Shown piece by piece: positions 9,632-36,971 of a stretch of DNA of 64,000 bases. Position 1 is the first letter of the stretch, and each line of letters begins with the position of its first letter. Below the pieces are notes generated by a model, which was not told the DNA's origin, did not search any database, and saw only the letters and a list, made by a program, of their open reading frames with translations. Made by a program: the position numbers and the translations under genes. The stretch spans positions 62,682,001 through 62,746,000 of the forward strand of contig OX597824.1 in the NCBI GenBank assembly GCA_951406725.2, in the 5' to 3' direction. Origin of the DNA: Octopus vulgaris. Lineage: Eukaryota.

Positions 9632-11003
9632 CGTGTGAAACAGAGAGATGAGATTTAAAAATGGTGACATATTCAAAGTAAATGCAGATATGAACTGCCA
9701 GACGCAGAACGTTATGTACTGCATAACCTGCCCCACGTGCAAGGAGAATTACGTAGGTGAAACTGGTAATTATTTGTGCCAGCGAGCCAGGATTCACCGA
9801 CAACATATTCGGCAGGAAGAACTACGCAAAATACCACTAAGTACACACCTAGGTACATGTGGAGAAGGAAAATTTAAGATCTTTCCCTTCTACAAATGTC
9901 CGAAGAACGACACCTCTTTCAGGAGGAATATGGACAAATATTTCATAGCTAAGTTCTCCCCCAAATTAAATGGCTGAAACTTTACTCATCATACATTAAA
10001 GGACAAATCTTTCGATTTACAATATAATATAGTAGAACATTTAATATGTGTGTGTATATATATATAGGTGTGTGTATATATATATATATTACCTGTTATA
10101 TACATTATATTGTTTTTGTAATTTACTTGATCTTTACTTGCCAATTGTCATTCTAATTTTAACCTTCCTATGATATGCAATTTTCAAGATGGTGTAATTT
10201 GATTGTTCATTTTGAATCGATAGAAGGTGGTTTTTTTCTAATATTTCATGTGTAAGCATGTATATATATATATATAGTGACATTGAAGGACACATCTTTC
10301 GATTTACAATCTAATATAGTAGAACATTTAGTATAAGTATGTATATGTATATATATGTGTGTGTATACATATATATATATTGCCTGTTATATACATTATA
10401 TTATTTTTATAATTTACTTCCATCTTTACTTTTTAATTGTCACTTTAATTTTAACTTTCCTATGATATACAATTTTCAAGATGGTATAATTTAGTTGTTC
10501 ATTTTGAACCGATAAAAGGTTTTTTTTCAAATATTTCATGTATAAGTCTGTGTATATATATGTAGTGGAATAAATATCAACACAAATTTTTTTCCCCTTC
10601 CTCCTTTATTTTTCTTTTCCCTTTTCTCTTTTTGTCTCTCTCCCCTTCTCCAAACACACAGAGACACACAGACACACGCACACACACACGCACACACACA
10701 CACGCACACACACAAACACACACAAACACACACGGACACACAGACACACACACACCTCCACAAACGATCATAAAAAGTGGAAAGAGTTCTTTGACCCCAA
10801 ACGGCATTTGACCATCCTCAAAATGATAAAAGGAGGTGTAATTTATGGCCTGCCTACCTACCACCACACACTCAGTGACACTGAAGTGGTCAAAGCTGAA
10901 ATTCTTAGAAACCCCTTGGAGTCAGTGTTCTGTCCAGCAGACCAAAGGAAATCCTTCTTCTTCCCTCTCCCTTCCCCTCTTTATCTTTAGCCTCAGACAC
11001 AAA

Positions 11004-12144: not shown

Positions 12145-13920
12145 CTGTCTGTGTGTGTGTGTGTATGTGTGTGTGCGTGTTTGTGTGATGTGTATAAAGT
12201 TCGTGCTACTGCATAGTCAACGATGTGATAATTTATTTGTCCAAATTTATTCTATAAGTGATGAGGAATAAAACACATAACGGCTGCTTCGGCACACACC
12301 TTGATAGGCTTGTCAACGTGTGGTATGCATTGGAATTATTTTTGCTGGAATGTTGAAAATGTACACGTTGTAATTGGCTTCGTATTGAGTTAGATAATTT
12401 TTTGCTGTCTTATCTATGAGTGAACTCGAGCATTCTGTGCGTACGTATGTGTGTGTGTTGTTTGTGAATGTATATGAGCGCGCACGCTCTTGTCTCTTAA
12501 TGTATGTTCGTGCATCTTTAGAAGTGTATTGCAATGCATGTATTATGGAACACATGCATGGCTAAAGATATAGCAATTGTACTTCTAAAATTACTGATTC
12601 GAAAATAGAAATGATTCTACATAAAGGAAAAATGATATTGGCATGTGTGCGTATATATATAAGGAGATGAGTAGTACCAAATTACCATTCCTGGATATAA
12701 TGGTAATTAAAAAAGACACCACCATCACCACAGATATATACTATAAACACACAGACACACATCAATACCTACATTTTAAGTCGTGCCATCCACCACATAC
12801 AAAACGTAACATCCCATACTGCCTAGCCAGAAGAATTTGTACTATTGTAGAAGATGCAAATATCAGGAACAAACGCCTAATAGAACTAAGAGAATTTTTG
12901 CTCAAACAAAAATACCCATCTCTACTTATAGAAAATGGCATACAGCGGGCTATAAAAATACCTATACAACAACTTAGGACAACCCAAGGAAGAGGAAAAC
13001 AAGAACAAGTCATACCATTCATAGTGACACACAACCCATGTCACCAGAATATCTTCAACATTGCCAAAGCAAACCTACCAATCATTGCCCAAAGTAATGA
13101 ATTAAAAGACATAATCAAGGATCGAGCTATGGTGCTTAGTAAAAGACAGCCTAAAAACTTGAAAACATTACTAACAAAGGCAAAATTTGACCTCAGCAAC
13201 AAAGACCAAACATTCACGGTATCTAAATGCAATGATAGCCGATGTGGCACATGCCAATTCATACATACCGGTCAATATATAAACACAAAAACCGGGAAAA
13301 TATTCACAAACGCGAATATGAACTGCAAAAGCAGAAATTTAATTTACTGCATCAAATGCCCAAATTGTGAAGAAATATATGTAGGTCAGACGGGAAACGC
13401 ACTATTAGAACGCTCACGTGTACACCGGCAACAGATTAGAGACCCAGAGGTCCGTCAGATACCTTTGAGTAACCACCTAGCAACATGTGGTCGGAAAATA
13501 TATATAATATTTCCATTCTACAAATTACACAGCCCAAGTGAAATCGAGAGGAAAATCAGAGAAAAGAATTTTATTGATAAATTCGAACCCAAGCTAAATA
13601 AGCAATAATAATAATACTTAGAGGTATTACTTCCACTGCTACGACCATGACCACTAACAACAACAACAATACTAAAGGTGATCAAGACGAAGATAGCAGG
13701 AAAATTATCTTATTTAGGGTTAAAAGTTCTATTGCCACCACCATCACCACTAGCAACAATAATTAAGGTGCTGACAATGATGATGATGACAATTGAACTA
13801 TAAAAATATAAAAATCTCTGACAAAGGATATTTACAACATTTCTAAAAATAACCCAACAATTGCTGCTTCGGCCAGGGTCAAGATACAGGACTCTTGACC
13901 TGTCCAACAAAGCGTGATGC

Positions 13921-14070
13921 CTAAACCAATCAGCTCAACCAACCAATCAGCTTAAGTAATTGAGTGATACTACACACTGATTGGTCAGAATACAGTTTGC
14001 AAAACCTAGCACTCTGGAGCCTACCCAGCTGTATTTATAGCACAGAATCACTCATCTTGCTACAGTCAAA
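13921..14070 (+). promoter_or_regulatory. Putative Pol II promoter in pseudo-LTR (second copy ~18195-18344)
   Basis: Two AACCAATCAG CCAAT boxes (~13924, ~13941), an inverted CTGATTGG (~13977) and TATTTATA at 14032-14039. Confidence 0.55.
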
Positions 14071-14102
14071 AATTGTGAAGCATGACTGTCAACACTACTA
14101 CA

Positions 14103-14147
14103 TGAACCCGAAGATTGCAGAATTCAATGCATGAAAGTACTAGTTCA
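14103..14147 (+). ncRNA. Minimal type I hammerhead ribozyme (variant core) in 5' pseudo-LTR
   Basis: TGAAC-CCGAAGA-T-TGCA-gaattcaa-TGCA-T-GAAA-GTAC-TA-GTTCA. 5-bp stem I, stem II and palindromic stem III AGTACT. Deviations: U4->C and a U.U pair closing stem II. Confidence 0.7.
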
Positions 14148-14354
14148 ATCAGAATGAATATTTAACATTCTACTATTTCATTTTATTTTATTCAATTATA
14201 ATATATTATCTTATAATATATCATTATAAGATTGTAAATAAAACGTGAAAATCAGACAAGGTTGGAATTCTTTTTATTAATATATTCTTCTATACACAAT
14301 CACACACACCCACATATATATATATATCTATATTCCTATTGTGTATATGCCAAC

Positions 14355-15648
14355 ATGTCTGGAAAGCAACAAACAAAATTAACAGAATCCGAAAGAATTC
14401 TAATAGAAATTTCATCGAAATTATCAACACTCATCACGATGATTGACACACAATCCTCTATTTTAAAGGAAATAGAAAAACAGTCTACAGACGGAAAACT
14501 TGGAAATGAACACATAAACTCTGAAATTAAGAATTTAGCTGAAATGATACCAACAATTATAAAATCTACAAGAGAAAGCCTACCACAACCTCCTTGGATG
14601 TCAGAAATAAACGAAAGAAATCTGGAAAAAGAGGCACACCGAAAAAGAGAAGAGATACAGAAGACATGGAAAAAAACTCCTTAACATAAGAAAACAAAAC
14701 TTCTGGAAGGCATATAAATGCGAAAAATATGCTGAAATACATTCGAAATGGATATCTTTAGCGGCACCCATACTTCCTCGGAAGTACCTAATTAAAGAAA
14801 TTGCAGGAGAACCAGAGGAAGAAACTAAACTTCGATGGGACCTTGGTTTGATAAAATTCAGGACCGACATCTCCATTACCCTGTCTAAACAATCCCGCTA
14901 CAAAGCCAAATACGAAGCTATCGATGATCAAATCAGAGATGAAATATCCAAACTAACGACCGGCAATATAGCAGAAAAAATGCGAGAACTATGGATCAGA
15001 GATATCTCAAAAGAAGAAAGCAGATCAAGAAAGTTTTGGCAGCGGAAACAATTATTTCTCGACAAATATGCTACAAATTACGGTAAAGACACCAGAACTC
15101 CGAGAAATAGCATTAAAAGTGGACAACCTCACCAACGCAACATACACCAGAACACGTGGCAACATGAACACCCGTTTCACCACGAATCGAAGACGAACTA
15201 CGGTAAGAACTCTTCCCATTTTGTATGCAAACACCCTAATGCACACAACATGAACAAAAAGCACAAACAAAATAGATATTGTTTTGAACAGACCATTAGC
15301 AGTAGAAATAACAGGAGATCATTTTCAAGACCTCAACAGAGATTACCCACAAGAAACTGGACAAAAAACCGATCTAGATCTAGAAGTAAACCCAGATCAT
15401 TTCTCCAGGTGGTTAAAAACAATGCTAACAAGAAATTGAAAAGTAGCATACATAATACCAAAAACAAGACAGAAAACATAACGAAACCAAGTAAAGTACC
15501 ACAACCAAAACGCAAAATTCATCAAGCAAACATCAACAGGAATATAAATCATAACCAGAAAAAAATCCATTTTTTTACGTCAGGACAACAAACACCGGAG
15601 AAAGAAAAAATCCAAGAGGAAACATACCCCAAACAACTGAACGTATAG
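14355..15648 (+). CDS. PLE upstream ORF1 (helical N-terminus, Arg/Lys/Asn-rich C-terminus), interrupted by one frameshift in the A7 run 14670-14676
   Basis: ATG 14355 (MSGKQQTKL...). Removing one A joins it to the open frame LLNIRKQNFWKAY...PILPRKYLIK...IKFRTD... that ends at 15648. Confidence 0.6.
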
Positions 15649-17882
15649 ATCCTAAAATAATTAATTTATCAAAAAGAGATCTTGACAATGATGAAATCCA
15701 ACTTCTGTCAAAAGGACTGAAATTCACACCTACACCAACAGCCAACCACCAAGAATTAAAGGAGGATATCCAAAAATTCTGTCGAAAATTACGACTTGTA
15801 GAATTCTTCGCTAACAAAAGTAATGAGATTGATGAATCCCTAGTAAGGAATAAATCAAATTTCACCCCACCAAAAGGAAGAAATAACTACCTTGACCAAT
15901 ACATTGATATCCTGTCTAAATTTCCCCTTAGACGCAATACCAATGTTAGGCCAAACATTAGCAAATCAGAGATGTCTGCATGTAAACGTATACAAAACGA
16001 TCAAACAATAATAATTAAACAAGCAGATAAAGGTGGTGCAATTGTTATTATGGATACCGAATACTATAAGGATTTGGTTGAAGACCAACTGAAGGATACA
16101 ACCTTCTATTGTGAAATACCCGCAAATATAGACCACCACATCATGAAAAAGATCAACAACCTGATTTCAACACACCACAACTCACTTACGGATAATGAAA
16201 AAGACTACATCACCAATTTTGAACCAAAACCCAGCAACTTCTACGGCTTACCAAAAATACACAAATCAAAAAACATTCAACAGGCAGTAAAAGAACAAGA
16301 AAGTGAGTACATAAAATTATTACATCCAAAAGACCTAAAACTTAGACCTATTATAGCTGGTCCAGCATGCCCTACACACCGTCTAAGCAATTTTATTGAC
16401 ATTGTTTTGAAACCACTATGTACTTACATACCAAGTTTCATCAGGGATGACATCGACTTCCTGTCCCATCTTCCCAAAACAACAGAAACAAATTCAGTTT
16501 TGCTAAGTTTTGATGTGGTAAGCCTCTACACCAATATTCCACACGATTTAGGAATAAAGGCGATTAAATACTGGTTAGAAAAACATAGAGAAGTGATTCC
16601 CAGCAGATTCACAGTGCCATTTATATTAGACACAGTCAAACTTATTCTAGAAAATAACACATTCTTCTTCAATGGAAAGAATTACATCCAAATTAGAGGC
16701 ACGGCGATGGGAACGAGGTTTGCTCCCGTTTACGCCAACTCTGTAATGGGATACTTAGAAGAACAACTCTACCAAGAGGTGGAGGTAAACTATGGCACTG
16801 GATTTAGAAAGTATATTGAAAAGGCATGGAAGAGATACCTAGACGACTGTTTCATAATCTGGACAGAATCTCTAAATACTCTGGAAGAGTTCAATATCCT
16901 CCTGAACAACCTACACCCATCTCTCAAATTTACAAAGGAGATGAGTAGTACCAAATTACCATTCCTGGATATAATGGTAATTAAAAAAGACACCACCATC
17001 ACCACAGATATATACTATAAACACACAGACACACATCAATACCTACATTTTAAGTCGTGCCATCCACCACATACAAAACGTAACATCCCATACTGCCTAG
17101 CCAGAAGAATTTGTACTATTGTAGAAGATGCAAATATCAGGAACAAACGCCTAATAGAACTAAGAGAATTTTTGCTCAAACAAAAATACCCATCTCTACT
17201 TATAGAAAATGGCATACAGCGGGCTATAAAAATACCTATACAACAACTTAGGACAACCCAAGGAAGAGGAAAACAAGAACAAGTCATACCATTCATAGTG
17301 ACACACAACCCATGTCACCAGAATATCTTCAACATTGCCAAAGCAAACCTACCAATCATTGCCCAAAGTAATGAATTAAAAGACATAATCAAGGATCGAG
17401 CTATGGTGCTTAGTAAAAGACAGCCTAAAAACTTGAAAACATTACTAACAAAGGCAAAATTTGACCTCAGCAACAAAGACCAAACATTCACGGTATCTAA
17501 ATGCAATGATAGCCGATGTGGCACATGCCAATTCATACATACCGGTCAATATATAAACACAAAAACCGGGAAAATATTCACAAACGCGAATATGAACTGC
17601 AAAAGCAGAAATTTAATTTACTGCATCAAATGCCCAAATTGTGAAGAAATATATGTAGGTCAGACGGGAAACGCACTATTAGAACGCTCACGTGTACACC
17701 GGCAACAGATTAGAGACCCAGAGGTCCGTCAGATACCTTTGAGTAACCACCTAGCAACATGTGGTCGGAAAATATATATAATATTTCCATTCTACAAATT
17801 ACACAGCCCAAGTGAAATCGAGAGGAAAATCAGAGAAAAGAATTTTATTGATAAATTCGAACCCAAGCTAAATAAGCAATAA
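15555..17882 (+). CDS. PLE reverse transcriptase + GIY-YIG endonuclease (ORF2; open from 15555, first ATG 15972)
   Basis: IINLS...LLSKGLKFTPTP, KQADKGGAIVIMD, FYGLPKIHK, LRPIIAG, SFDVVSLYTNIP, GTAMGTRFAPVYAN, WKRYLDDCF, LPFLDI, linker CNDSRCGTC, LIYCIKCPNC-EEIYVGQT, FEPKLN. Confidence 0.95.
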   Translation, partial: PEKNPFFYVRTTNTGERKNPRGNIPQTTERIDPKIINLSKRDLDNDEIQLLSKGLKFTPTPTANHQELKEDIQKFCRKLRLVEFFANKSNEIDESLVRNKSNFTPPKGRNNYLDQYIDILSKFPLRRNTNVRPNISKSEMSACKRIQNDQTIIIKQADKGGAIVIMDTEYYKDLVEDQLKDTTFYCEIPANIDHHIMKKINNLISTHHNSLTDNEKDYITNFEPKPSNFYGLPKIHKSKNIQQAVKEQESEYIKLLHPKDLKLRPIIAGPACPTHRLSNFIDIVLKPLCTYIPSFIRDDIDFLSHLPKTTETNSVLLSFDVVSLYTNIPHDLGIKAIKYWLEKHREVIPSRFTVPFILDTVKLILENNTFFFNGKNYIQIRGTAMGTRFAPVYANSVMGYLEEQLYQEVEVNYGTGFRKYIEKAWKRYLDDCFIIWTESLNTLEEFNILLNNLHPSLKFTKEMSSTKLPFLDIMVIKKDTTITTDIYYKHTDTHQYLHFKSCHPPHTKRNIPYCLARRICTIVEDANIRNKRLIELREFLLKQKYPSLLIENGIQRAIKIPIQQLRTTQGRGKQEQVIPFIVTHNPCHQNIFNIAKANLPIIAQSNELKDIIKDRAMVLSKRQPKNLKTLLTKAKFDLSNKDQTFTVSKCNDSRCGTCQFIHTGQYINTKTGKIFTNANMNCKSRNLIYCIKCPNCEEIYVGQTGNALLERSRVHRQQIRDPEVRQIPLSNHLATCGRKIYIIFPFYKLHSPSEIERKIREKNFIDKFEPKLNKQ

Positions 17883-18599
17883 TAATAATACTTAGAGGTA
17901 TTACTTCCACTGCTACGACCATGACCACTAACAACAACAACAATACTAAAGGTGATCAAGACGAAGATAGCAGGAAAATTATCTTATTTAGGGTTAAAAG
18001 TTCTATTGCCACCACCATCACCACTAGCAACAATAATTAAGGTGCTGACAATGATGATGATGACAATTGAAATATAAAAATATAAAAATCTCTGACAAAG
18101 GATATTTACAACATTTCTAAAAATAACCCAACAATTGCTGCTTCGGCCAGGGTCAAGATACAGGACTCTTGACCTGTCCAACAAAGCGTGATGCCTAAAC
18201 CAATCAGCTCAACCAACCAATCAGCTTAAGTAATTGAGTGATACTACACACTGATTGGTCAGAATACAGTTTGCAAAACCTAGCACTCTGGAGCCTACCC
18301 AGCTGTATTTATAGCACAGAATCACTCATCTTGCTACAGTCAAAAATTGTGAAGCATGACTGTCAACACTACTACATGAACCCGAAGATTGCAGAATTCA
18401 ATGCATGAAAGTACTAGTTCAATCAGAATGAATATTTAACATTCTACTATTTCATTTTATTTTATTCAATTATAATATATTATCTTATAATATATCATTA
18501 TAAGATTGTAAATAAAACGTGAAAATCAGACAAGGTTGGAATTCTTTTTATTAATATATTCTTCTATACACAATCACACACACCACATATATATATATA

Positions 18600-18606
<7 letters not shown>
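16935..18606 (+). repeat. 3' pseudo-LTR
   Basis: Near-identical to 12661-14333, followed by (TA)n. Confidence 0.95.
18377..18421 (+). ncRNA. Minimal type I hammerhead ribozyme, second identical copy
   Basis: Identical to 14103-14147. Confidence 0.7.
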
Positions 18607-18647
<41 letters not shown>

Positions 18648-36774: not shown

Positions 36775-36971
36775 TTCGAGACAAAACCACTATTTTGCAA
36801 AACAAGCAAGGAAAGACTTAATCAATACATAAAAATTTTTAATATAAAGAAATAAACCGCCACTACAATCGTTTCATGTCTTCAATGACATTCGTCAGGT
36901 GGATTTTCGATCTCCTAATCTGTTTTAATTTATGAAGTCTTCATTAAATTAAAACAGATTATTCTAATATT

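Follow-up and report, generated by a model that had tools for sequence, protein, structure and literature searches.

A very recently inserted, partially tandem Neptune-type Penelope-like element in Octopus vulgaris, with RT-EN likely expressed by −1 frameshifting

Penelope-like elements (PLEs) typically occur as partial tandems, and for Penelope the promoter is established to lie in the pseudo-long terminal repeat (pseudo-LTR) (PMC8557442). A Cys-rich linker is common to the Neptune, Nematis and Naiad groups, of which Neptune itself is paraphyletic (PMC8557442). The legend to Fig. 1 of the same paper already notes, for some animal PLEs, an open reading frame 1 (ORF1) that is set off by a frameshift and a pseudoknot. 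In PAc, a Poseidon element of Anolis carolinensis, an extended helical region at the N-terminus is predicted to dimerise, and the ribozyme of PAc needed protein and was dispensable for insertion in vitro (PMC11167929). Here, we describe a related element in a 64 000-nucleotide stretch of the O. vulgaris genome (assembly GCA_951406725.2, contig OX597824.1, positions 62 682 001–62 746 000; the window). We read it as a Neptune-type PLE with two ORFs that was inserted very recently, as a partial tandem, into a (TA)n microsatellite. Its reverse transcriptase–endonuclease (RT-EN) is likely to be made by −1 frameshifting, and the present copy is probably non-autonomous through an extra base in ORF1. 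The probability of this reading is put at roughly 0.78.

A Neptune-type element in partial-tandem form

The element is a real, partial-tandem insertion of a Penelope-like retrotransposon. A full-length unit of 4273 bases (14334–18606) is preceded by a 5'-truncated copy (12661–14333, plus strand) that consists of the 3' 315 codons of RT-EN and the 3' untranslated region. This upstream pseudo-LTR and the downstream one at the 3' end of the unit (16935–18606, plus strand) are identical in 1671 of 1673 alignment columns and differ by C/A at 13798/18072 and by one extra C at 14309. This is in agreement with the first-pass annotation, which described two ∼1.67 kb pseudo-LTRs set apart by one substitution and one 1 nt indel, and its assignment as a partial tandem is likewise borne out. 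The head-to-tail junction 14333/14334 is crossed by one contig, from sequencing run X1, and the partial-tandem form therefore occurs outside this assembly. A contig of X1, 4301 nt in length, has overlapping ends of 30 nt that are compatible alike with tandem DNA, read-through RNA or a circle. Elsewhere in the window there is no DNA-level match to the element, and no relative of it was found among the viral contigs searched.

As first noted, (TA)n is present at both ends, but the flanks are unequal in length, with ∼5 units on the left (12652–12661, the target remnant itself being 12652–12660) and ∼20 units on the right (18607–18645). A target-site duplication is not discernible at this site. 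A (TA)n target is also seen at loose 3' ends in runs X12 and X10.

The age of the family was assessed against other sequencing runs. At least 88% of the sampled words of the unit are present in 20 of the 24 runs listed (six studies, one organism), and contigs of four runs were mapped onto 12200–16934. Compared with the contig majority, the copy differs at 14405, 14845 and 12772 (=17046) and by an indel at 14670, amounting to ∼4 of 4273 bases or ∼0.1%; further differences are confined to the upstream repeat (13798) or to the comparison with X12 (16502). At 12772/17046 both pseudo-LTRs have a C where all four runs have an A, and this shared private base fits the copying of both pseudo-LTRs from one template. 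In X12 the contig depth climbs from ∼165 at the 5' end to at least 430 towards the 3' end, a gradient that gives no copy number and fits many 5'-truncated copies. The few differences from the contigs of the other runs point to a very young family. Together with the near-identity of the pseudo-LTRs they support a very recent insertion, as was originally proposed, and a homogeneous, multi-copy family.

The RT-EN frame (ORF2; 15555–17882, plus strand) is stop-free over 775 residues and carries both enzymatic domains, as expected from the first description. It contains the RT motifs GLKF, DKG and YLDD (16836), a Cys linker (17502–17600) and, at the C-terminus, a GIY-YIG endonuclease (EN, residues 687–773) in which the catalytic residues R, H, E and N are present. 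Pfam matches are obtained to RVT_1 (E = 2.3e-6, below the curated cut-off) and to GIY-YIG (E = 2.6e-5). The CCHH residues Cys693, Cys696, His715 and His732 are invariant among 30 aligned proteins. The RT profile found no match in PDB sequences.

The PLE-type RT, the C-terminal GIY-YIG domain, the CCHH residues, the pseudo-LTR partial tandem and a hammerhead motif are all features of EN+ PLEs, whereas the two ORFs in −1 overlap depart from their canonical single-ORF description. The C-terminal position of the endonuclease excludes Naiad/Chlamys, in which it is N-terminal, and the presence of the Cys linker excludes Penelope/Poseidon. This linker reads C-x4-C-x2-C and is followed by a spacer of 23 residues to the next Cys. 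When compared by eye with Fig. S2 of PMC8557442, in which the Neptune rows have long spacers and the Nematis rows short ones, the spacer of the element is long, and this disfavours Nematis. The RT3-4 motifs resemble, again by eye, the Neptune rows of Fig. S1 (PMC8557442). The linker was originally taken as a mark of Neptune; being common to Nematis and Naiad it is not one, and the features that point to Neptune are the long spacer and the C-terminal endonuclease. In an RT tree of 40 chosen rows the element falls into a 20-row clade (support 100/100) with the loci L001, L003, L012 and L081, which carry the frameshift site, and the linker-less loci lie apart. The rows include no named references, and the tree separates only the clade of the element from linker-less loci. 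Support for the Neptune type comes from the linker and the motifs rather than from a tree with named references.

ORF1 and the −1 overlap with RT-EN

Upstream of the RT frame lies ORF1 (14355–15648), which was overlooked in the first-pass annotation. From the ATG at 14355, 109 codons match residues 1–105 of the related protein P0122 with 47% identity, and the frame 14611–15648 matches the remainder with 40% identity. In the relatives P0121 and P0122, ORF1 is a single ORF of ∼400 residues. In the present copy an A7 run (14670–14676, plus strand) with one extra base shifts the frame. This leaves a coiled-coil-like 5' piece of 109 residues from the ATG to a premature stop (14355–14684, plus strand) and a 3' piece (14677–15648, plus strand) with a helical core and a basic N/Q/K/R-rich tail that is predicted to be disordered. 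The extra A is not found in any of the three runs that cover the site. As it breaks ORF1 (+1), the copy is probably non-autonomous and would not move alone, unless the extra A is an assembly error. The intact RT frame had been taken to indicate a near-complete element; with ORF1 broken, it does not make the copy autonomous.

The last 94 nt of ORF1 are shared with ORF2, which is in the −1 frame there, and the shared stretch contains the slippery heptamer T TTT TTT (15570–15576, plus strand). The first Met of ORF2 (15972) is residue 140 and is preceded by conserved motifs at residues 36–105. With no earlier Met and with ORF1 overlapping in the −1 frame, the stop-free frame cannot be regarded as a complete gene. 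We fetched 99 related loci, nine close ones of which show the ORF1/ORF2 junction, with L016 cut by a contig end. T TTT TT(A/G) is in phase in the −1 overlap in eight of the nine assessable loci, as T TTT TTA in L001, L003, L005, L008 and L009 and as T TTT TTG in L004, L012 and L081; L058 has neither form and looks decayed. The phase X XXY YYZ is correct and is conserved in the overlap of the relatives. Downstream of the heptamer the G+C content of the relatives is raised. Further downstream, an in-phase TTTTTT occurs once in 5596 ORF2 codons (the window and eight loci). Among linker-bearing loci with the N-terminus in view, a slippery heptamer is found in a −1 overlap in eight of ten (not in L014 and L086), compared with none of 15 linker-less rows, three of which come from one contig.

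The trace of the heptamer is also seen at the protein level. From 151 ORF1 homologs collected, 87 with a length of 335–500 residues were counted as full-length, and all 87 are also recovered by a profile without the tail. The dipeptide F[L/F] is found within the last 50 residues in 77 of these 87, in 25 of them exactly 12 residues from the end, and in the three preceding 50-residue windows in 8, 10 and 26. Among 717 RT homologs the best 120 have at most 803 residues and none is fused to ORF1, a fusion of ∼1175 residues being within the searched range. The missing early Met, the −1 overlap, the heptamer kept in eight of nine loci and the position of F[L/F] in the homologs make it likely that RT-EN is produced by −1 ribosomal frameshifting from ORF1.

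Several observations weigh against the overall reading. Nine sequences that were folded share no pseudoknot or hairpin beyond the heptamer, where a stimulatory one would lie 5–9 nt downstream; a folding z-score below −2 is reached in two of the nine, and the values of the window, 0.71 and −1.03, indicate a weak fold. The heptamer of the window ends in T, while those of the relatives end in A or G. The RT homologs are probably automated gene calls, often from short contigs, and their lengths would in part be an artefact. Finally, the extra A is part of a homopolymer and could have been introduced by the assembly; the copy would then be intact.

This last point leads to an intact and autonomous copy, a reading that we regard as rather unlikely. 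Homopolymer errors are common in long-read assemblies, and the indel lies within an A run and is missing from all three covering runs. Against this, the private substitutions at 14405, 14845 and 12772/17046 show that private changes do occur in this copy, and the T7 run and other homopolymers in the compared stretch have no listed indel. It is decidedly improbable that the 1.67 kb duplication arose in the assembly from a collapsed repeat. The two copies are nearly identical and the left flank junction is crossed by no read or contig (12200–12515 is without coverage in the four runs, the DNA-like one among them, and is uninformative either way), yet they differ at two positions, share a private base that is not in the other runs and are joined in a contig of an independent run, and partial tandems are typical of PLEs (PMC8557442).

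ORF2 might also be expressed without ribosomal frameshifting, whether by splicing, by slippage of the polymerase along the T run, by reinitiation or by initiation at a non-AUG codon, which we consider improbable. In its favour, T runs can cause polymerase slippage and no stimulatory RNA structure was found; PLEs are moreover known for spliceosomal introns (PMC4209133). For the contigs of the three runs that cover 15570, however, no indel and no skipping or splice-like joint is listed, and a start at the first Met would lose conserved motifs. Polymerase slippage predicts neither the X XXY YYZ phase nor the use of TTTAAAC in the same −1 overlap by distant linker-bearing loci.

Comparable overlaps are seen in other groups. 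In a distant PLE group (L017, L021, L028, L029, L030 and L039) T TTA AAC lies in a −1 overlap after upstream ORFs of 500–721 residues (where complete) that do not match the ORF1 profile. In another RT group (L031, L044, L055, L067–L070, L072 and L079) the −1 overlaps are ∼600–660 nt long and contain A AAA AAC, and the upstream ORFs reach up to ∼790 residues.

The ORF1 protein, the hammerhead motifs and the surroundings

A profile search with ORF1 retrieves 1037 clusters (50% identity) at E values of up to 0.001. The structure predicted for P0122 consists entirely of helices as far as residue 260 or so and is of low confidence beyond; K, R, N and Q abound in the tail. Among PDB sequences the N-terminal part matches only generic coiled coils. 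In Pfam no family was matched by more than one of 60 members and no match was consistent; ORF1 has no usable Atlas match, and Foldseek gives none with an E value of 0.001 or lower. A first comparison with a profile of the N-terminal domain of single-ORF PLEs was negative (E = 0.53). With the divergent rows L086 and L014 dropped, a weak match is obtained (E = 0.0044, probability 7.8%), the reversed control giving E = 0.39. The predicted helices about an invariant proline have 33, 47 and 39 residues in ORF1 and 32, 43 and 43 in the N-terminal domain of single-ORF PLEs. These comparisons of profiles and predicted helices give a hint that the two may be homologous.

Each pseudo-LTR contains a minimal type I hammerhead motif (14103–14147 and 18377–18421, plus strand). 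The ribozyme cassette of the first-pass annotation thus stands as a motif, of which cleavage is predicted (after 14142 in the upstream copy). The predicted fold includes helices I and II, helix III is palindromic and the core has a C at position 4 (U4C, 14109), where no variant is listed in the run contigs. A relaxed hammerhead descriptor matches in none of 500 composition-matched resamples of 13601–14333. Rfam gives nothing at the gathering score and, below it, only microsatellite-driven miRNA matches. The hammerhead matches of related loci carry U at position 4, bar one repeated weak match. A viroid variant with U4C is reported to have far lower activity in vitro but to be adequate in vivo (PMC3088659). 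In L014, L059 and L061 the hammerhead motifs show a U3–A8 covariation as in Schistosoma PLEs.

Between 70 and 180 nt upstream of the hammerhead lie three CCAAT motifs (13926, 13943 and 13980 on the minus strand; 13926–13984) and a TATA-like 8-mer (14032–14039, plus strand), which as motif matches form a candidate promoter. A bacterial promoter scan of the window was discarded as irrelevant to the host. Five short upstream ATGs (14082–14154) follow the TATA-like motif and precede ORF1; four of the five come no later than the predicted ribozyme cut. On the same basis AATAAA at 18511–18516 (plus strand) is a candidate polyadenylation signal.

In the mechanism that we propose, transcription would start in the upstream pseudo-LTR, just past the CCAAT and TATA-like motifs. 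Ribosomes would start at 14355 and mostly yield an ORF1 protein of ∼430 residues with a coiled coil, a helical core and a basic tail; this protein is predicted to oligomerise and to act as an RNA-binding partner. A smaller share of the ribosomes would slip by −1 at 15570–15576 and produce an ORF1–RT-EN fusion of ∼1175 residues. (TA)n DNA would be nicked by the endonuclease, and the partial tandem would result from the RT copying beyond a single unit of the RNA. Cleavage by the hammerheads would be weak and would occur in dimeric form or with the help of protein. More tentatively, the clade may have split an N-terminal helical dimerisation domain from the RT through programmed −1 frameshifting, giving rise to a large unnamed gag-like ORF1 family that is made in excess over the RT-EN fusion, and the young family may spread despite a hammerhead weakened by U4C.

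Other remnants are present in the window. An older, related PLE endonuclease fragment (9657–9971, plus strand; 55% amino-acid identity) lies beside (GT)n 2.7 kb upstream of the element. It is followed directly by two copies of a 292 bp tandem repeat (9993–10561, 87% match), possibly its 3' region, in which the hammerhead descriptor finds no match. At ∼36855–36902 (minus strand) a minimal hammerhead motif, its core canonical, stands alone; it is probably what is left of another PLE, and its vicinity contains no RT match. Named homologs of the element come mostly from molluscs or mollusc-associated assemblies. PLE RT contigs are also seen inside prokaryotic genome bins (L081–L099), and several top protein matches are named as bacterial symbionts; these contigs are probably host contamination.

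Significance and comparison with known systems

Young Neptune-type elements are common, and as an insertion the present one is nothing unusual. It is of value as an almost intact model for a group that has received little study, in which a conserved −1 slippery site spans a large unnamed ORF1 family in elements that are usually called single-ORF. Should this be confirmed, it would account for the way in which structural protein and enzyme are balanced in these elements and for the missing true N-terminus of RT-only gene models. An open RT frame is not sufficient to call such a copy active.

In retroviral gag-pol a structural ORF precedes the polymerase ORF and −1 frameshifting takes place at U UUU UUA. 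The heptamer type and the order of the ORFs are the same in the element, but it is no LTR element or virus, has no protease or integrase, and no stimulatory hairpin was found.

Compared with PAc of A. carolinensis (PMC11167929), the element is alike in its partial tandem, AT-rich target, pseudo-LTR hammerhead and RT with GIY-YIG. PAc is described as having a single ORF, no Cys linker and a hammerhead that overlaps the start codon, whereas the element has two ORFs in −1 overlap and a hammerhead ∼210 nt upstream of the ATG. With the minimal hammerheads of metazoan PLEs (PMC4209133) it shares type I topology, a short helix I, an extra base after position 9 and a small palindromic helix III, one motif per pseudo-LTR, and it departs from them in having C for U at core position 4 and no G10.1–C11.1 pair.

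Within the Neptune literature, explicit −1 frameshifting was not found in the parts consulted beyond the legend to Fig. 1 of PMC8557442, which does not establish its absence from print. Set against the Neptune group of that paper, the element has no detectable pseudoknot, an ORF1 without a consistent Pfam match and a U4C hammerhead. The Fundulus Neptune (PMC12602865), which is active, is likewise young, and its ORF1 is also a separate one without a match in databases; its two ORFs are said not to overlap, ORF1 being 420 nt long, and the main text mentions no frameshift. With the Neptune group as described in PMC8557442 the element shares an RT with C-terminal GIY-YIG, the CCHH residues, a CX2-5CxxC linker with a long spacer, the pseudo-LTR partial tandem, a hammerhead near the 3' end and the (TA)n target.

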